Source of the DNA: Candidatus Dormiibacterota bacterium
GTDB taxonomy: Bacteria > Chloroflexota > Dormibacteria > Aeolococcales > Aeolococcaceae
Direction: 5' to 3'
Length of the DNA: 64,000 nt
NCBI GenBank assembly: GCA_963718525.1
Contig: OY970355.1
Coordinates: 2,752,001 to 2,816,000 of the forward strand
Under the pieces are notes generated by a model, which did no database searches, was not told the origin of the DNA, and was given only the letters and a program-made list of their open reading frames with translations. Positions within the stretch are counted from its first letter, which is position 1; each line of letters begins with the position of its first letter. The translations under genes were made by a program, and so were the position numbers. Shown piece by piece: positions 20,416 through 27,142 of the stretch.

Positions 20416-21810
20416 ATGCAGCCCTCCGCGCTGACCACCATCGGCTACATGCTGACCGCGATCAGCTTCATGTTCGGCATCCAATTGCTGCGCTCGCCGG
20501 CGACGGCGAGGACAGGAAATCGCATTGCGGCGATCGGCATGCTCCTCGTGCTCGGCATCACCGCAGCGCTCATTCACAACACGAGCAACTGGCCGCTGAT
20601 CATTCCTCCGATCGTCGTCGGTACGGCCATCGGCGCGGTGTCGGCGCGGCTCGTGCGGATGACCGCCATGCCGCAGATGGTGGCGCTGTTCAACGGCATG
20701 GGCGGCGGCTCGGCCGCGCTCATCGCCGTGCAGGACTTCCGCACCGCCGTGGCCCACGGGACCGCGACACCCGATATCGCGTGGGCGATCATGGTGAGCT
20801 GCGTGATCGGCTCACTCAGCTTTGCGGGCAGCCTGGTTGCCTTCGCAAAGCTGCAGGAATTGATGCCCGGGCGGCCGCTGACCTATCGGTTGCAGAGCGC
20901 CGTGAACGGGTTGCTGCTGCTGGTCATTCTCGCGCTCGGCGTCTACCTCGTCGTCGCCAACCAGAACCTGACGCTGTTCACCGTGTTCGTCATCCTTGCA
21001 CTGATCCTCGGCGTGCTGTTCGTAGTGCCGATCGGCGGCGCCGACATGCCCGTGATCATCTCGCTGCTCAACTCGTTCACGGAACTCGCCGCCGCCAGCA
21101 CGGGGTTCGTGCTCAGCAATGACGTGCTCATCGTCAGCGGTGCGCTGGTGGGTGCGTCGGGAACCATCCTCACCCTGGCGATGAGCAAGGCGATGAACCG
21201 ATCGCTGTTCAACGTGCTCTTCAGCGGCTTCGGTTCCAAGATCGAGTCCGCCGGCAGCGCGGCCGGCACTGATGGCGGCAGCATCCATCCAACCACCGTC
21301 GAGGACGTTGCCCCGCTGCTCGCGTTCGCGCAACTCGTGGTGTTCGTCCCCGGCTACGGCATGGCCGTCGCGCGTGCGCAGCACGAGGTCAAGGAGCTCG
21401 CCGACGAGCTCGAGAAGCGCGGAGTGACTGTCGAATACGCGATTCACCCTGTCGCTGGACGCATGCCCGGTCACATGAACGTCCTGCTGGCCGAGGCCAA
21501 CGTGCCCTATCCACAGCTCAAGGAGATGGATGAGGTCAACGGTGACTTCCCCCGAACCGACGTGGCGGTCGTGATCGGTGCCAATGACGTCGTCAACCCC
21601 GCGGCACGCACCCAGACCAACAGTCCCATCTATGGGATGCCCATCCTCAACGTCGACCAGGCGAAAACCGTCGTGGTGATCAAGCGCAGCATGGCGCCGG
21701 GATTCGCGGGCGTTGACAACCCGCTGTTCTATAAGCCGAACACCCTCATGTTGTTCGGCGACGCACGCACCGCCGTCGCTTCACTGATCGCCGAGGTCAA
21801 GAAGCAGTAG
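20416..21810 (+). CDS. pntB: NAD(P) transhydrogenase subunit beta
   Basis: MPQMVA, IGGADMP, PGYGMA, HPVAGRMPGHMNVLLAEA. Confidence 0.95.
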   Translation: MQPSALTTIGYMLTAISFMFGIQLLRSPATARTGNRIAAIGMLLVLGITAALIHNTSNWPLIIPPIVVGTAIGAVSARLVRMTAMPQMVALFNGMGGGSAALIAVQDFRTAVAHGTATPDIAWAIMVSCVIGSLSFAGSLVAFAKLQELMPGRPLTYRLQSAVNGLLLLVILALGVYLVVANQNLTLFTVFVILALILGVLFVVPIGGADMPVIISLLNSFTELAAASTGFVLSNDVLIVSGALVGASGTILTLAMSKAMNRSLFNVLFSGFGSKIESAGSAAGTDGGSIHPTTVEDVAPLLAFAQLVVFVPGYGMAVARAQHEVKELADELEKRGVTVEYAIHPVAGRMPGHMNVLLAEANVPYPQLKEMDEVNGDFPRTDVAVVIGANDVVNPAARTQTNSPIYGMPILNVDQAKTVVVIKRSMAPGFAGVDNPLFYKPNTLMLFGDARTAVASLIAEVKKQ

Positions 21811-22198
21811 GCGGCAGTTTCCCGGCGGACGCGACGCTGCGCAGGGCATTGAGCAGGTCCGCCGGCGCGGTGTCCTTCACGACATAGCCGACGGCGCCGC
21901 TCTTCAACGCTTCCACCATGCGCTCGTGGCCGCCAAATGAGGTCAGCATCATCACCCGGGTACCCGGTGCCTTCTCGACGAGCCGCCGGGTCGCCTCGAT
22001 GCCGCCCATGCCGGGCATGGACAGATCCATCAACACCACGTCAGGGTGGAGCTCCTGAGCCATCTCGAGGGCCTGTTCGCCCGAATCGGCGAGGCCGACC
22101 ACCTCGATGTCAGGCTCGTGACCGAGAAACGAGGCAAGCCCCTTGCGGACGACCGGGTGGTCGTCCACGATCATGACGCGAGTCGCTTGAGGGGCCAT
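21797..22198 (-). CDS. Single-domain response regulator (NarL-type receiver, no output domain)
   Basis: VDDHPVVR, MDLSMP, LTS and K are present; the protein ends at 133 aa with no LuxR HTH. Confidence 0.9.
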   Translation of the reverse strand: MAPQATRVMIVDDHPVVRKGLASFLGHEPDIEVVGLADSGEQALEMAQELHPDVVLMDLSMPGMGGIEATRRLVEKAPGTRVMMLTSFGGHERMVEALKSGAVGYVVKDTAPADLLNALRSVASAGKLPPTAS

Positions 22199-22210
22199 CC
22201 GTCACCCACT

Positions 22211-23710
22211 CTACTCGATGGGCAGCGTCAAAACGACAAGCGTTCCTCGACCCGGTTCGGAGTCGATGGTGAGCGTGCCTCCGGCGTCCTCGGCGAGCTC
22301 GACGATTGCCGCGGTGCCGAGGTGTCCTTCGGCTCTTCGGCGCTCGACGTCCTTCTCGCTGAAGCCTTTTCCGTCGTCCTCGATGCTGAGGACGGCGGAG
22401 CCGTCCTCCGTGGTGAGATGCACTTTCACGTTCTTTGCGTGCGCGTGCGCCACGACGTTGCGAAGGATCTCGTGCGCCACCCGGAAGATGAGCGCTCCGC
22501 GGTCTTCACGAAGCCTGAGATTCGGCGGCAGGTCGAGCTCAGTGTTGGTTCCCTTGCGCTTCATCTCGCGCAACACCTCGAGGAGCGCAGCCTGAAGGCC
22601 CTCCCGGCGAAGCGTCGGCGGCGCCAGTTCGATGATCAGCGTGCGCAGATCCTTCATGGCGCCGCGGGTCTCCGTCGCTGAGATTTCCAGAAGCTCGAGC
22701 AGGTTGTTGTCGCCATGCTTGTCGTCCGGCGTCAGGCGCAGATGGGACGCCTCAGCGGACAGCGCGAAGGCCATCCCGGCCAGGTTCTGGACCACTCCGT
22801 CATGAAGGTCGCGAGCGATGCGTCGCCGCTCCGCCTCGGAGGCTTCGACCGCTTTTTGGAGCAGTTCCTCGCGTTCCTTCTGATGCGCGGCGCGCTGCTC
22901 CTCGTAGGCGTTCACGCGACGAGCGAAGATGATGAGGAAGCCGTGCAGCAGGATGACCGGCGCCAGTAGGGCCATGAATCCCACGGTTTTGGCGTCGTTG
23001 TACATGGTCACGAAGGCGAATGCAGCGAAACCGTAGCCGATGCTGTATGGGAGTACCGACAGACGTCCTCGCAGGACGCGCGTGATGGGGACGTGGGGGT
23101 CCGACAGGTGAATGACCACTGCGACGAAGCCGGAGTTCACCGTGAAGTGGACGAATCCCGCGGCCAGCCCCGCCAGCAGGGCTGAACCTGTTCCGCGTCC
23201 GTTGCCGGGACCGTTGACCCACACGAAGACGAGCCACGCCGCGACGTTGGCAATGAATTCGTTCGCCATGTTGAAGCTCGTTCGAAACCAACCGTTGTGG
23301 TTGCGAACGGATACGCCGATCGGCTCGGCGAGTGCGCCGACCGCCGCGCCTGCGGGACCGAACGTCACCGAAAGGCCGAGGTGGACGAACGCCGTCGGAA
23401 CCCACGAGACATTTGCCGGCGGAGCTGACCTGATCGCGAAGACGGCCATCAGGAAGATGGTCATCCCCGCCACCACGAAGGTGGTGTAGTCGACGGTCAC
23501 CCGCACCCTCAGCACGGAGATCACCGCTATGGCGATTGCCGCCACGACCGTCGCGCCGACATACGCAACCAGCCCAAGGTTGTAGTCGACTGGTCCGAGC
23601 GCCGGCGACTTGGGGAGAAGGTCCAGGCGCCGAATGGCCAGCACTGCGCTGCGAAACCAACCGCCCTTTTCAGCCCCATGCGTCCGCGGCGCGATGATGT
23701 CCTGCGCCAT
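22211..23710 (-). CDS. Membrane sensor histidine kinase (polytopic sensor + HisKA_3 + HATPase)
   Basis: About 7-8 hydrophobic segments; ERRRIARDLHDGVVQ H-box; DDGKGF; start could be 23737. Confidence 0.92.
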   Translation of the reverse strand: MAQDIIAPRTHGAEKGGWFRSAVLAIRRLDLLPKSPALGPVDYNLGLVAYVGATVVAAIAIAVISVLRVRVTVDYTTFVVAGMTIFLMAVFAIRSAPPANVSWVPTAFVHLGLSVTFGPAGAAVGALAEPIGVSVRNHNGWFRTSFNMANEFIANVAAWLVFVWVNGPGNGRGTGSALLAGLAAGFVHFTVNSGFVAVVIHLSDPHVPITRVLRGRLSVLPYSIGYGFAAFAFVTMYNDAKTVGFMALLAPVILLHGFLIIFARRVNAYEEQRAAHQKEREELLQKAVEASEAERRRIARDLHDGVVQNLAGMAFALSAEASHLRLTPDDKHGDNNLLELLEISATETRGAMKDLRTLIIELAPPTLRREGLQAALLEVLREMKRKGTNTELDLPPNLRLREDRGALIFRVAHEILRNVVAHAHAKNVKVHLTTEDGSAVLSIEDDGKGFSEKDVERRRAEGHLGTAAIVELAEDAGGTLTIDSEPGRGTLVVLTLPIE

Positions 23711-23753
23711 GCGACCGATCCTATTCCGCTCGCGCAAGACGACAGGGGTTGCG

Positions 23754-23767
23754 TGACAACATTGTCA
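23754..23767. promoter_or_regulatory. Inverted repeat TGACAA-N2-TTGTCA upstream of the kinase gene
   Basis: Perfect 6-bp arms in the divergent intergenic region. Confidence 0.4.
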
Positions 23768-23883
23768 GCGCGTCACGGAGAAAACCCTGTCCCATCCTCA
23801 CGTTTGACGCGTTGTTTCGCGTGCAGCGCGTCGCTCGCGTCAGTAATGTCAACGCGAAAACTCAGCGAAGAAATGTGAACGTG

Positions 23884-23901
23884 AGATCAGACGTCTGGTC
23901 T
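23884..23901. promoter_or_regulatory. Near-perfect palindrome AGATCAGACGTCTGGTCT, candidate operator
   Basis: 18-bp dyad with one mismatched pair, 25 nt upstream of a TACAGT -10-like hexamer (23927-23932). Confidence 0.45.
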
Positions 23902-24002
23902 TAAGCCCAAAGAACCTCCGCAGGGTTACAGTACGCGCAACACCCACGCGCCGACGGTCAGGTCTCACGCTACCCGACGGCGCATTTTCTTAGGAGGTTC
24001 CC

Positions 24003-24035
24003 ATGGCTACTTGGGGCGACGTCGACAACTGGTAG
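24003..24035 (+). CDS. 10-aa peptide MATWGDVDNW
   Basis: AGGAGG SD at 23992-23997, 5 nt before the ATG; an in-frame TAG at 23991 fixes the length; a hairpin follows. Confidence 0.65.
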   Translation: MATWGDVDNW

Positions 24036-24048
24036 ACCCTAGGGTTGC

Positions 24049-24072
24049 CCGGCACTCACTGTAGAGCGCCGG
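24049..24072 (+). terminator. GC-rich hairpin after peptide 1 (no U-tract)
   Basis: CCGGCACTC-ACTGTA-GAGCGCCGG, one mismatch. Confidence 0.45.
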
Positions 24073-24281
24073 TGTGACGATCTATTGGGTAATTGCGTGA
24101 CAGGCCTTTAACGGGTCGATCGCGTCATTATCACGGAGGGGGCCCACGGGCGGGCTGCCGGGTGCGCAACTGCGGCGCATTCGGCTCCGGGTTGGGTCCG
24201 CTCGCGTACGCTTGCGTCGCGATTGAGCACTCCAAAAAGGAAACGACGCTGAGGTCCTCGGCGGATGCGTCCACCGACCGT

Positions 24282-25466
24282 TTGAGCACGCATCGAGGTG
24301 TGCTGAGGCCCCCTGTTCGACTGCTCATCGCTGCTGGGACGTCCTTCTACGGGGACTGGCTCACGACGGTGGCCCTGGTCGTGCTCCTCTACCGCGTGAC
24401 CCAGTCCCCGCTCGGACCCGCTGTGTACATGCTCGCCCGGGTGGCGCCCAGATTGATCGGACCATTCCCGGGCGGCGCGCTCGCTGATCGGTTCGGACCC
24501 GCCCGTATCGCGGCCGTCTGCGCGGTGCTGCAGGGGCTGCTGACCGCATCAATCGTGGTGCTTGCCGATACCGGGCTCATCTGGCCGATCTTTGTGGTGG
24601 TGGCGTTGGCCCAATTCCTGAGCTCTGCCGCGCAACCGTGCTACGGGGCCCTGGTCCCCCGGGTCACCGATGCGTCGGGCCTGGGCAGGATCCAGGGCAT
24701 CTTCGCGGCGCTGAACAGCTCCAGCCTGATGATCTCGCCGGTGATCGGTGCGCTGCTGCTCCCCTTCCTGGCCCCGGAGGTGCTGATCGCCATCGACGCC
24801 GGCACATTCTTCGTCGCGGCCGCACTGGTTGGATCACTCGCCGGCGTCGGACGGGCGACGCCAGGGCAGGCTGGGAGCACTCGGGGCATGTCGGCGGGGA
24901 TTCCGATCGTCTTTCGCGATCCGATGCTTCGTTTCCTCGGCGCCGCGTACATCTCCAACGCCGCTGCGGTGACCGCCTTGCAGGCCGTGCTGGTCGTTGC
25001 CGCGGCGCAACGCTTCGGCCATGACACAGCGGTGGGCTGGCTCTACGCCGCGGTTGGAGCCGGTTCGCTGCTGGGAACGTTCCCGGTGATCCGTCGAACG
25101 CCCGAACGAGTGACGCAGCTCCCGATCATCGCGGCGACCGTTCTTGAACTCGTCCCACTGGCCGCGTTCGTCTTCGTGACGAACATCGCACTCGCAATCG
25201 TCCTCCTGTTCATCAGCGCCACCGGGGCTACGCTGTACCAGACGAGAGGCGCGGTCGGCCTGCAGCAGCGCGTGCCACGCGACCTGTTGGGACGGACGAC
25301 CGCAGTCGAGCGCTTCGCGGGATCGCTCGGGATGCTGCTTGGCGCAATTGCCGCGGTCTCGCTGGTTCAACCGCTCGGCTGGCAATCGACGGTGCTCATT
25401 GTCTGCGCGCTTGGCGCGACCTTGCTGTTCGTCACAGCCGTGAGCGAGGGCGACAGTCCGGACTGA
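24282..25466 (+). CDS. MFS exporter 1 (DHA3/MFS_3-like); start uncertain
   Basis: SFYGDWLT, GGALADRFG motif A, LQQRVPRDLLGR; about 12 TM segments. Confidence 0.85.
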   Translation: MSTHRGVLRPPVRLLIAAGTSFYGDWLTTVALVVLLYRVTQSPLGPAVYMLARVAPRLIGPFPGGALADRFGPARIAAVCAVLQGLLTASIVVLADTGLIWPIFVVVALAQFLSSAAQPCYGALVPRVTDASGLGRIQGIFAALNSSSLMISPVIGALLLPFLAPEVLIAIDAGTFFVAAALVGSLAGVGRATPGQAGSTRGMSAGIPIVFRDPMLRFLGAAYISNAAAVTALQAVLVVAAAQRFGHDTAVGWLYAAVGAGSLLGTFPVIRRTPERVTQLPIIAATVLELVPLAAFVFVTNIALAIVLLFISATGATLYQTRGAVGLQQRVPRDLLGRTTAVERFAGSLGMLLGAIAAVSLVQPLGWQSTVLIVCALGATLLFVTAVSEGDSPD

Positions 25467-25661
25467 CCGTCCCGGGCGCTCATCAGGTGCGAGTCAACGT
25501 GCTGGGTAGGTTGGCAAAGAATTGTACAAGTTGCGTGAACGGTTGTTAACTCGCCCCAAGCCCGCCGAACGTGGCGAGTGTCAACCAGCCACCCTGAAGT
25601 GGCCACCTCGCCATTGATGTGTCGAGAATTCTGGTGTCGGCGGTATCCATTGGAGGCGGTT

Positions 25662-25688
25662 ATGGCGGACGGCGCGGCCTGGGGCTGA
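25662..25688 (+). CDS. 8-aa peptide MADGAAWG
   Basis: GGAGG SD at 25652-25656, 5 nt before the ATG; followed by an intrinsic terminator; same position relative to MFS2 as peptide 1 has to MFS1. Confidence 0.6.
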   Translation: MADGAAWG

Positions 25689-25704
25689 GCCCCACTTCGT
25701 TGAC

Positions 25705-25727
25705 CCCCGAGCTTGCTCGGGGTTTTT
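25705..25727 (+). terminator. Rho-independent terminator between peptide 2 and MFS2
   Basis: CCCCGAG-CTTG-CTCGGGG followed by TTTTT. Confidence 0.85.
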
Positions 25728-25801
25728 GAATCCGTTGGTGCGACGTCGTGAGTCAGCTCACGACGTCGCGCTTCGTTTCGGCCCCTGCACCCGGAGTGGA
25801 T

Positions 25802-27142
25802 ATGCCGATCGACGCGGCGCGATTCTTTCCTCGAGCCGCAGGCACGCTGCCGAAAGCTGATCGATCAGCGCGGCTGCTGCTTGCGGCCGGAGTCTCGACG
25901 TACGGCGATTGGTTGACCGTGGTCGCGCTCACCGTCCTGCTGTTCGGGATCACCCATCAGGCAGAGGCCCCCGCGCTCTACATCGTGGCGCGATTCGCCC
26001 CAAAGGTGCTCGGTCCAAACCTCGGCGGCGCGCTCGCCGATCGCTTTGGACCGAGCCGGGTCGCCGGCTGGTCAGCACTCGCGCAGTGCGTGCTGGTCTC
26101 CGGCATCGTCATCCTTGCGAACACCGGGACCGTCTGGGCGATTCTCGTGACGGTGGCCTGCGCGGGGTTCCTCGGATCCGTCGCACAGCCGGCGTACAGC
26201 GCATCCATTCCGCGAGTCACTCCGCCGGCCCGGCTCCTGCGCGTCAACGCGATCTACAGCGGTCTGTTCGAATCGAGCGTCCTCGTTGCACCGGTGATCG
26301 GTGCGCTCGTGATGCCGCTCATCAAGCCGCAGATCCTCGTCAGTGCCGACGCAGCCTCCTTCCTGATCGCAGGAGTGCTCATGCTCTCGCTCCGGGTCGG
26401 TCCTGCGGAGACCGTTGCATCGCGCGCCGGCGATCGCTCAGGTGCACGAGCCGTGCTGGCTCGAGACCCGATGCTGCGTGCGCTCGCCGCCTCGTTCTTC
26501 TGCAGCGCCGCTGCGATCACGACGCTCCAGGCAGTGCTGGTCGTCGCCGCCGTCCAGCGCTTCGGGAGCGCCACCGACGTCGGCTGGCTCTACGCGGCTG
26601 TCGGGGGCGGTGAAGTCATCGGCAGTCTCGTGCTCCTGCGGTCGAGCCCGCGCACCATCCGCGCTCGGGGTGTCGCCTTCGGCTTTCTCGTCGAGGTGAT
26701 CCCCATCGGCCTCTTCGCTTTCATCAGCGGCATGCTCCCGGCGATCGGCCTGCTCTTCGTCAGCACCGCAGCCGCCGCGATCTATCAAACACGCGGCCAG
26801 ACCGCCCTCCAGCAGCGCGTCCCCCCGGAGATGCTCGGGAGGGTCAATGGCCTGCTTCGCATGCTGCTCTACCTCGGCATGCTGGTCGGAGCCGTCGCCG
26901 CTGCAGTCCTCGTCGAGGCGATCGGCTGGACGGTGCTCGTGCTGGGAGCCACGACGGTCTCGGTCGTCGCCTTCGTCCCCGCGGCCCTCACCTACCGGCG
27001 GGGTCCACGGCGTCCCGACGAGGTCAACCTCGCCGGGACACCAATGGTGCCGGTCTCAGGTCAGACCGCGACCGCCTCGCGGGCTTCCTTCTCGATCGGC
27101 AGGCCCACGGAGTTTCCCCACTCGCTCCACGACCCGTCGTAG
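25802..27142 (+). CDS. MFS exporter 2, paralog of exporter 1
   Basis: STYGDWLT, GGALADRFG, LQAVLVVAA, VGWLYAAVG and LQQRVP blocks shared with MFS1; ATG 25802 follows GGAG (alternative GTG 25748). Confidence 0.87.
   Translation: MPIDAARFFPRAAGTLPKADRSARLLLAAGVSTYGDWLTVVALTVLLFGITHQAEAPALYIVARFAPKVLGPNLGGALADRFGPSRVAGWSALAQCVLVSGIVILANTGTVWAILVTVACAGFLGSVAQPAYSASIPRVTPPARLLRVNAIYSGLFESSVLVAPVIGALVMPLIKPQILVSADAASFLIAGVLMLSLRVGPAETVASRAGDRSGARAVLARDPMLRALAASFFCSAAAITTLQAVLVVAAVQRFGSATDVGWLYAAVGGGEVIGSLVLLRSSPRTIRARGVAFGFLVEVIPIGLFAFISGMLPAIGLLFVSTAAAAIYQTRGQTALQQRVPPEMLGRVNGLLRMLLYLGMLVGAVAAAVLVEAIGWTVLVLGATTVSVVAFVPAALTYRRGPRRPDEVNLAGTPMVPVSGQTATASRASFSIGRPTEFPHSLHDPS

Follow-up and report, generated by a model that had tools for sequence, protein, structure and literature searches.

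The window analysed here, a 64,000-nucleotide stretch of a Candidatus Dormibacterota genome (contig OY970355.1, positions 2,752,001 to 2,816,000), carries one copy of a gene module that is specific to one family of this phylum. Its parts are an open reading frame (ORF) of 5-15 codons with a Trp close to the C-terminus, hereafter called a micro-ORF, a downstream gene for a DHA3-like transporter of the major facilitator superfamily (MFS), and a polytopic sensor of predicted S-component fold that is joined to an output, which in the window is a HisKA_3 histidine kinase with a receiver-only partner. We consider the module real and its combination of micro-ORF, DHA3-like MFS and S-component-fold sensor undescribed; no description of it was found in the literature by searches that did not target the exact combination, for which reason its absence from print is not proven. 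The original prediction, made from the letters of the window alone, had proposed a minimal signalling system in which two tiny Trp-Gly peptides are exported by their own MFS proteins and sensed by the kinase. The present analysis supports this interpretation in part, and a rival that has precedents is no less likely. By analogy with mef(E)L and MsrDL we favour, at a probability of roughly 0.4, the view that the micro-ORFs encode cis-acting leader peptides, and it should be stressed that the two readings are not mutually exclusive.

Conserved micro-ORFs ahead of two transporter genes

Both predicted micro-ORFs are present on the plus strand of the window, each led by a Shine-Dalgarno (SD) sequence at a spacing of 5 nucleotides (nt). 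Micro-ORF1 (24003-24035; 23992-24035 with its SD sequence AGGAGG at 23992-23997) reads ATG GCT ACT TGG GGC GAC GTC GAC AAC TGG TAG and would encode MATWGDVDNW, and micro-ORF2 (25662-25688; 25652-25688 with its SD sequence GGAGG at 25652-25656) reads ATG GCG GAC GGC GCG GCC TGG GGC TGA and would encode MADGAAWG. The genes that follow them on the same strand, MFS1 (24249-25466) and MFS2 (25793-27142 including its SD sequence GGAG), are paralogous as had been claimed, with 48% identity over 375 amino acids (E 8e-100). Pfam assigns both to MFS_1/MFS_3, and MFS1 gives full-length matches from residue 1 in relatives.

Within the genus the micro-ORFs are kept almost without exception. Micro-ORF1 was found in 21/21 loci, the window included, with the pattern MA[TSN]WGDx[DEAS][NSTA]W(G), and micro-ORF2 in 27 of the 29 loci scanned, with the pattern M[AT]x(0-1)[ADE]Gx(1-2)W[GAS](G); one of the two exceptions is a contig end without upstream DNA and the other was anchored on the wrong paralogue. 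This upstream placement exceeds chance, because a loose scan of the 3.34-Mb single-contig genome on both strands finds 561 SD-led ORFs of 3-25 amino acids that end in W-(x)-stop, equivalent to 0.044 expected per 520-nt upstream interval; under a stricter SD rule the genome holds 71 such ORFs.

The substitutions within these ORFs show that selection acts on the peptide. Among 26 distinct nucleotide versions of micro-ORF1, Ala2 is written with four codons, Asp6 with two and the optional last Gly with four, counts for which the pattern had fixed the conserved residues beforehand, an earlier unbiased scan having already revealed them. In the same set position 7 accommodates eight different residues, and Trp is last in 13/26 versions and next to last in the other 13/26. 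In the micro-ORF2 alignment all length differences are multiples of three and Trp is invariant, the stop codon being TGA in all 26 rows of alignment A3.

Homologues of MFS1 occur in 98 of the 117 family genomes and in 15 of the 22 genera, and no match outside the family was obtained at E<=1e-30 among 300 genomes drawn across the phylum. We examined 40 further loci from published genomes, 39 of them from other genera and one representing a third MFS copy in a same-genus genome. At 35 of these 40 loci an SD-led ORF of 5-15 codons that ends in W or W-x lies on the same strand, at most 520 nt 5' of the first transmembrane helix; the five loci without it are three of one genus, which keep MFS and sensor, one second copy and the same-genus third copy. 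The encoded peptides fall into six classes: A, MASWGDxxxW(G); B, M[AG][TS]W[DN]xQC...W[GASI]; C, MxTWTGHE...W(G/S); D, MxDGxxW[GS]; E, with 6-7 codons and a core of N-[GS]-W that precedes a single further residue (D, S or G); and F, with 7-11 codons ending in Trp, for example MAHVDLDxL[DS]W. Several single peptides stand outside them. Trp is the one residue invariant in all classes and often occurs twice at variable spacing. Class C retains the residues T-G-H-E despite changes at third codon positions, as seen in five sequences that represent three genera. Both the conservation of micro-ORFs upstream of orthologous MFS genes and the synonymous variation beneath a conserved peptide (in micro-ORF1 and in class C) that the original prediction had anticipated are thus borne out.

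Two observations concern the surroundings of such ORFs. A 12-nt motif, AAGAA[AT]TGT[GA][AC]A, lies at 23868-23879 and 25517-25528, that is, 135 and 145 nt 5' of micro-ORF1 and micro-ORF2, and may be a shared activator site. It has no further match on either strand of the 3.34-Mb genome, and this lack of further matches is the only informative part, because the pattern was derived from the same two sites. Outside the window (G000:C1:331750-331782) an ORF for MSVPPHRNWG precedes a distant MFS paralogue (26% identity), with 6 nt between its end, TGGGGCTGA, and the GTG of that gene; it may be a product of chance, as its apparent SD sequence belongs to a 12-bp perfect hairpin.

Leader RNAs and transporter starts

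The original prediction had placed a hairpin after each micro-ORF. Hairpins are indeed present, yet they turn out to be covarying RNA elements and terminators, the latter apparently ending a short abundant RNA before MFS1. Leader 1 is about 310 nt long (23940 to 24249), with a mean column identity of 71%. It is preceded by a plus-strand -10 box, TACAGT (23927-23932, element 23927-23940), which is kept as TACA[GC]T in 21/21 loci and from which we infer a transcript start at 23939/23940; a promoter scan of 23600-25900 returned one minus-strand site only and missed this box. Ahead of the micro-ORF1 ribosome-binding site lies hairpin P1 (23948-23983), for which RNAalifold pairs columns 14-18 with 45-49 and two sequences are changed on both sides. 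Behind the micro-ORF follow hairpin P2 (24049-24072), with compensatory double changes in 1-12 of 21 sequences per pair, and the nested helix P3 (24085-24136), with double changes in 3+1+1 sequences, both of them recovered by RNAalifold on the plus strand. The series is closed by a nearly invariant terminator-like stem of 11 bp (24157-24185) with a U-containing tail (24157-24196 in all), which is likely the 3' end of a leader RNA of about 256 nt.

RNA evidence was sought in 4 of 22 runs, of which X14 and X20 are metatranscriptomes of one study and X5 and X8 are of unrecorded kind. On the 3.5-kb stretch compared, X14 places a single contig, at 23940-24195, the whole contig being 256 nt long at a depth of 15; X20 likewise places a single contig, which covers 23939-24141 and then, over a further 73 nt, corresponds to a variant form of this leader that includes the same stem. 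Both contigs start 7-8 nt past the -10 box, and that of X14 ends about 10 nt beyond the terminator stem. MFS1, micro-ORF2 and MFS2 have no contig in either run, a lack of cover that proves nothing, and X5 and X8 contain low-depth fragments of the stretch or of relatives. These data hint at, but do not prove, an abundant and discrete leader RNA with an end ahead of MFS1, because contigs cannot fix RNA ends and the two runs are not independent.

Leader 2 is organized in a comparable manner, again on the plus strand. In a weakly supported hairpin H0 (25678-25696) the Trp-Gly codons of micro-ORF2 pair in the alignment with CCCC just past the stop codon, which itself lies in the loop; RNAalifold recovers three of its pairs, with no double changes. 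A terminator scan identifies H1, a 7-bp hairpin (25705-25722) followed by T5 (25705-25727 in all), as resembling an intrinsic terminator, and one of its pairs is double-changed in 6/26 sequences. The third hairpin, H2 (25738-25771), has 15 bp, all 15 pairs being recovered by RNAalifold with double changes in 4+1 sequences; it is followed by GCTTCGTTTC and covers GTG 25748.

Two candidates in this region were rejected. A second apparent micro-ORF in leader 1, MTIYWVIA (24074-24100), is broken in loci L039 and L046 and forms part of helix P3, so that its conservation is that of the RNA alone. The sole Rfam match between 21000 and 28000 at E<=1 was to the sodF small RNA (sRNA) on the minus strand (25737-25822), with 26.7 bits against a gathering cut-off of 46 and an E of 0.54; we dismissed it because it is caused by the palindrome of H2.

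MFS1 probably begins at CTG 24249, within the conserved GACGCTGA; this codon, which stands behind AAGGA, is invariant in 21/21 loci, and no ATG, GTG or TTG is conserved there, which suggests a deliberately weak translation initiation. The conserved start of MFS2 is ATG 25802, behind GGAG at a spacing of 5 nt (GGAG-N5-ATGCCGATCGAC), GTG 25748 being enclosed in H2. Judged by curated thresholds, both proteins are related to DHA3 MFS proteins yet are not members: the nearest NCBIfam model, TIGR00900 (DHA3), gives 128 bits for MFS1 and 135 bits for MFS2 against a cut-off of 319.6, and the models for Mef (Mef(B), Mef(En2)), EntS, Tap and Tet(V) give 17-45 bits against cut-offs of 324-800. The tandem MFS pair recurs in 31/36 other genomes of the genus and in 0/24 sister-family genomes (E<=1e-40). 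In several same-genus genomes (G002, G004, G019, G031, G033, G034 and others) MFS1 or MFS2 is split or has in-frame stops, which may reflect real decay or assembly errors in metagenome-assembled genomes.

Two further elements were noted. Between the kinase start and the cassette-1 promoter, inside the genus-conserved block CGTGACAGGATTGTC, lies the perfect inverted repeat TGACA-GGAT-TGTCA (23754-23767), a candidate operator; the pattern TGACA-N4-TGTCA has four sites in the genome, that of the window among them. At the class E loci L141-L149 a near-invariant C-rich, G-poor stretch, TCCACAGAAATTCCTCATCCCCTT, is found about 1-30 nt past the stop codon and before a 12-bp GC hairpin. It is better conserved than codon 2 of its 6-codon ORF and looks like a Rho-loading site or an anti-SD element.

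A predicted S-component-like sensor that stays with the transporter

Divergent from the cassettes, on the minus strand, lie the genes for a sensor histidine kinase (22211-23737) and a response regulator of 133 amino acids (21797-22198). The kinase had been described as a HisKA_3 protein with an all-membrane sensor, and Pfam finds HisKA_3 and HATPase_c behind about 290 amino acids of membrane helices; its start is probably ATG 23710, as the orthologues begin at the second Met. UhpB is among the NCBIfam matches of the kinase core. As regards the regulator, which had been called a NarL-type receiver, the NarL-like character of the receiver stands, the best NCBIfam matches being the receiver halves of NarL/MctR, but no DNA-binding output domain is present: Pfam finds Response_reg at residues 8-119 only (E 5e-32). 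Regulator orthologues beside divergent kinases are similarly short (131-136 amino acids in 12/15 loci). Within the genus the receiver-only regulator is 85-98% identical and the kinase 52-79%.

The sensor domain itself comprises about 240 amino acids (residues ~45-290; 22868-23605 on the minus strand), and alignment A1 shows invariant G127, R145, N156, W168, N201, G236 and P260. Residues 1-296 match no Pfam family at E<=10, MASE9 (PF20972) included. An AlphaFold model computed from a 28-sequence alignment (mean predicted local distance difference test score 88.4) points to a six-helix fold like that of the S-components of energy-coupling factor (ECF) transporters. In VIA-align, whose search does not depend on Foldseek, the top 14 rows are all S-components (NikM-type, RibU, PanT, CbiM, FolT, BioY and ThiT), with Z 9.8-13.7 over 151-192 aligned residues at a root-mean-square deviation of 3.2-4.1, followed by BtuM as the fifteenth row with Z 8.3 and by unrelated rows at Z<=7.1; helical bundles can reach Z ~13 by chance, which makes this match fold-level evidence only. 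Foldseek gave no match at E<=0.001 against the PDB, the better ones of its weak matches (E 0.011-0.33) being ECF S-components.

A profile search of 1.84 billion representative sequences with the sensor yielded 823 proteins at E<=1e-3, of which 60 are at E<=1e-30. Among ten distant relatives scanned, four have weak Pfam MASE9 matches, located between GGDEF and HD-GYP or before GGDEF-EAL. The MASE9 matches (E 2e-6 to 3e-4) are confined to proteins distantly related to the profile (E 1e-22 to 1e-12) and to one 237-amino-acid protein in another family, and the link between sensor and MASE9 is thus at most remote. In the genome of the window the domain is present in a single copy, and a search for related loci with the distant kinase relative P0085 returned an unrelated kinase-core match only. 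The tight sensor clade (E<1e-60) was found only in the family of the window among the families searched; outside it there are weak matches only, in 7/288 genomes (E 1e-24 to 3e-9).

The best of these outside matches (E 1e-24) lies in the sister family (G037, L175:2528-5590), where the gene for an HD-GYP sensor directly precedes an MFS_1/MFS_3 gene of the same strand at a distance of 306 nt; an SD-led 7-codon ORF between the two encodes MLRSSSP, which has no Trp. This single case may indicate that the link between sensor and MFS predates the Trp micro-ORF. In a third family, distant MASE9-like proteins adjoin a subtilase and a GGDEF gene, and no MFS.

The original prediction had coupled kinase and MFS, and their linkage extends beyond the collinearity of the genus, in which PntB, regulator, kinase and MFS1 are syntenic in 20/20 loci. 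In the window the module is flanked by the PntB gene upstream and a gene for a rhodanese protein downstream, as identified by Pfam scan. Clustering of the ORFs of at least 110 amino acids at the 40 further loci gives three families common across genera, namely the MFS (40), the sensor-domain protein (37) and the receiver protein (26); any further large cluster is either genus-specific or made up of antisense frames of the three. The linkage survives replacement of the kinase. Judged by tblastn extent, and by Pfam for three of the kinases, four of the HD_5 forms and one of the GGDEF-EAL forms, the sensor is joined to a HisKA_3 kinase at 27 loci, to an HD-GYP-type HD_5 domain at 7 and to PAS-GGDEF-EAL at 3, so that 10/37 are not kinases. 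It also survives changes of gene order: kinase and receiver-only regulator may be divergent from the cassette; micro-ORF, MFS, a REC+GerE regulator (by domain scan of 2 of the 11 regulators in such operon-type loci) and kinase may all follow on one strand, as in three genera; or an HD-GYP sensor may lie upstream on the same strand.

The same association is apparent at the level of genomes. MFS and sensor are both present in 93 of the 117 family genomes, both absent in 15 and discordant in 9, most discordant cases lying at contig ends. For the 113 published genomes the respective numbers are 89, 15 and 9, the four unpublished ones having both; no statistical test was applied, because kin are not independent. 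In genomes with two modules the peptides belong to different classes, one for each module, and there are likewise two MFS genes and two sensors. Micro-ORF2 and its MFS have no dedicated sensor in the window, nor do they at a separate locus of another genus (L123).

Possible roles as leader peptide or exported signal, and known systems

How could such a module work? If the micro-ORFs are leader peptides, transcription would start about 65 nt 5' of micro-ORF1 and would mostly end at the terminator before the MFS gene, and the way in which ribosomes handle the micro-ORF would decide how much transcription or translation reaches the transporter. The likely trigger, as for Mef(E)L and MsrDL, would be a stall that is specific to the peptide and occurs when a small aromatic ligand or a drug is present. 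At the membrane the sensor domain would detect either the compound that is transported or the transporter itself and would pass the signal to phosphorylation or to the turnover of cyclic di-GMP (c-di-GMP). We favour this reading because the micro-ORF is always 5' of the MFS gene on the same strand; it is so in 35/35 ORF-bearing loci outside the main genus set, at 130-370 nt before the first transmembrane helix, and the arrangement holds whatever the positions of sensor and regulator genes. Further reasons are that covarying hairpins and terminator-like stems separate each micro-ORF from its MFS gene (in class E loci, a 12-bp GC stem about 30 nt past the stop codon), that the metatranscriptome contigs span the interval from the -10 box to the terminator, that the transporters are closest to TIGR00900 (DHA3) with weak matches to Mef(B), Mef(En2), Tap and Tet(V), and that the mef(E) leader and MsrDL provide a precedent. 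In addition, peptide-level selection would fit a sequence-specific effect of the nascent chain, micro-ORF2 and its MFS occur without their own sensor, and we also count in favour the three loci of one genus that keep MFS and sensor without a micro-ORF.

Several facts nevertheless weigh against a cis-acting leader peptide. The RNAalifold consensus contains no antiterminator, and no helix competing with the terminators of leaders 1 and 2 was found. In minimum-energy folds a ribosomal footprint placed over the start codon, or over the stop codon, leaves the terminator stems intact in classes A, D and E. Masking of the entire ORF still leaves those of classes A and E in place, while the short stem H1 of class D refolds; this modelling covers minimum-energy structures, as opposed to Rho-dependent or kinetic mechanisms. 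Known arrest peptides need a fixed spacing to the peptidyl-transferase centre, and the distance from the N-terminal block to the C-terminal Trp and stop codon varies here, as in class C, where 3-4 residues separate TWTGHE from Trp. The peptides also differ greatly between genera, with lengths of 5-15 amino acids and six or more classes. We know of no drug-pump leader peptide that is accompanied by a dedicated ligand-binding membrane sensor, and a leader peptide leaves unexplained why the sensor domain persists beside the MFS gene in 37/40 loci through three output types and co-occurs with it in genomes. Finally, none of the peptides has the +x+ motif that is described for macrolide-sensing leaders.

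The exported signal, which we hold to be a tentative yet serious alternative, would account for several of these facts. In this scheme a Trp-anchored peptide of near-final size, made without any enzyme from a stable, terminator-bounded mRNA of about 100-260 nt, would be pumped out by the MFS protein and read from outside by the S-component-fold sensor, which would then alter phosphorylation (kinase) or c-di-GMP (HD-GYP, GGDEF-EAL). The peptide could perceivably be a self-made quorum or autocrine cue, the terminator setting a high ratio of peptide to exporter as for mccA, and genomes with two modules would have two separate peptide channels, in keeping with their two peptide classes, MFS genes and sensors. 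The parts that stay constant over 15 or more genera would correspond to a signal (35/40), an exporter (40/40) and a receptor (37/40), with no conserved gene for a modifying enzyme or anything else in the vicinity. Genomes tend to have both MFS and sensor or neither, and it is the input domain rather than the output that remains linked to the MFS. The one-strand order of micro-ORF, MFS, regulator and kinase in three genera matches signal-first peptide-pheromone operons. The peptides combine residues under purifying selection with hypervariable ones, a flexible spacer connecting their two conserved ends; the footprint-masked folds revealed no ribosome-dependent antiterminator. The sensor is predicted to have the fold of high-affinity membrane ligand binders, and mccA offers the precedent of a 7-amino-acid gene with a terminator and a short, abundant, ribosome-stabilised transcript. 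On the other hand, solved S-components are described as binding vitamins and metals and not peptides, and the transporter has its nearest homologues among pumps for drugs and siderophores, the best-studied of which is described as being under leader-peptide control. Export by the MFS and sensing by the kinase are putative steps. The occurrence of micro-ORF2 and MFS2 without their own sensor, the genus that keeps MFS and sensor without a micro-ORF, and a regulator without an output domain in the window all fit poorly with a signal, for which moreover the 120 nt of covarying RNA between micro-ORF1 and the terminator would be superfluous. To our knowledge an unmodified, leaderless bacterial signalling peptide of 5-15 amino acids is not known, and literature searches, none of them aimed directly at this point, brought up no example.

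Two other explanations deserve far less credit. Pausing on UGG when charged transfer RNA for Trp is scarce, as in trpL, could set the level of a transporter for aromatic compounds, with a sensor that binds external Trp. The invariance of Trp across peptide classes, often in two copies at variable spacing, agrees with this, and Trp-specific S-components have reportedly been proposed (TrpP). We regard it as very improbable all the same, given that residues other than Trp are kept through synonymous changes (Ala2, Asp6 and the terminal Gly, as well as T-G-H-E in class C), that no two Trp codons are adjacent in any peptide, a single one being present in the 6-codon class, and that the downstream gene encodes an MFS protein, DHA3-type proteins being exporters as far as known. 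Moreover, trpE in the genome of the window follows an upstream gene and has no leader ORF, so that the lineage shows no Trp-codon attenuation where it would be expected. We give even less credence to the idea that the leaders are riboswitch-like or sRNA-like elements and the ORFs by-products of conserved RNA such as UGGGGC. It would agree with the covarying helices and 71% mean column identity of leader 1, with codon 5, which is GGC in 26/26 micro-ORF1 versions, with the ability of the Trp-Gly codons to pair with downstream CCCC/CCCG, and with the case of MTIYWVIA, an apparent ORF that proved to be RNA conservation alone. Yet start codon, SD sequence at fixed spacing, frame and stop codon are kept in 21/21 and 27/29 loci, all indels are multiples of three, synonymous third-position changes occur beneath conserved residues, the same ORF design recurs on unrelated nucleotide sequence in other genera, and Rfam provides no match, its single hit lying on the opposite strand with an E of 0.54.

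Whether leader peptides or signals, the micro-ORFs are among the shortest conserved bacterial genes and are linked here with a DHA3-type transporter and a previously unnamed S-component-fold sensor with swappable outputs, in a lineage of an uncultured soil and peat phylum whose signalling is almost undescribed. Leader peptides of this kind would constitute a new, Trp-dependent class of nascent-chain sensors; they would also be the first leaders of a transporter to be coupled to a sensor of their own, one with outputs into two-component and c-di-GMP signalling. If, in contrast, the peptides are signals, they would represent the simplest ribosomal peptide communication known, with no leader, protease or modification, and MASE9-like domains would gain their first ligand class. 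The parts of the module are small enough to be synthesized and tested outside the native host.

Among known systems, mef(E)/mel comes closest to the reading that we favour. The leader of mef(E) is described as being 327 nt long and as containing four stem-loops, an 8-amino-acid leader peptide that is required for induction and a Rho-independent terminator, attenuation being apparent from RNA-seq. The likeness lies in a DHA3-type MFS gene behind a leader of about 300 nt with stem-loops, a tiny SD-led ORF (8 amino acids in mef(E), 10 here) and a terminator. The peptides described here differ in being acidic and Trp-bearing, in contrast to the MTASMRLR-like Mef(E)L; they come with no anti-attenuator that we could find, with a dedicated membrane sensor gene and with MFS proteins that score far below the Mef cut-offs. 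MsrDL is reported to stall the ribosome by preventing peptide-bond formation and release-factor accommodation, and such a stall would fit the conserved Trp one or two residues before the stop codon. In the described MsrDL mechanism, however, the stalled ribosome blocks formation of the terminator and the inducer is a macrolide, whereas no competing structure was found here.

The exported signal has its nearest parallels elsewhere. In microcin C, MccC is an MFS exporter. The mccA gene, of 7 codons, is described as giving rise, by means of an intrinsic terminator, to a short, very abundant, ribosome-bound transcript, with minor read-through to biosynthetic and export genes. The shared features are a tiny gene followed by a terminator and, in microcin C, a product that leaves via an MFS pump. 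The mcc genes differ in including no sensor gene, in an Asn as the key residue where our peptides have a C-terminal Trp (W or W-x), and in their adenylating enzyme, MccB; clustering at the 40 loci revealed no MccB-like or other conserved enzyme gene, MccB not having been searched by its own profile. In Agr, ComQXPA and plnABCD-type systems the operon opens with a small peptide gene and also encodes a polytopic kinase and a regulator. ComP is likewise a HisKA_3-type kinase, and a Trp is essential in the ComX signal. All the peptide-pheromone precursors known to us have at least 20 amino acids and are cut and/or modified by AgrB, ComQ or C39-ABC exporters. The present module departs from peptide quorum sensing in having no leader and no processing gene, the MFS protein as the sole candidate exporter, another sensor fold, and outputs that include c-di-GMP enzymes.

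As for the pairing of sensor and transporter, UhpB is a polytopic HisKA_3 kinase that works with an adjacently encoded MFS protein, UhpC. It differs in its MASE1 domain, in the role of UhpC as a sugar-phosphate receptor, in a regulator with a DNA-binding domain and in having no micro-ORF. MASE9, for which the preprint of Galperin and Chou gives a promiscuous integral-membrane input domain with unknown ligand on HD-GYP, GGDEF-EAL and kinase proteins, resembles the present sensor in its choice of outputs, although no link to an MFS or a micro-ORF is known to have been described for it. The predicted fold of the sensor matches NikM, RibU, ThiT, BioY and FolT; these ECF S-components are subunits of transporters and not sensors, whereas the domain described here is fused to signalling outputs.

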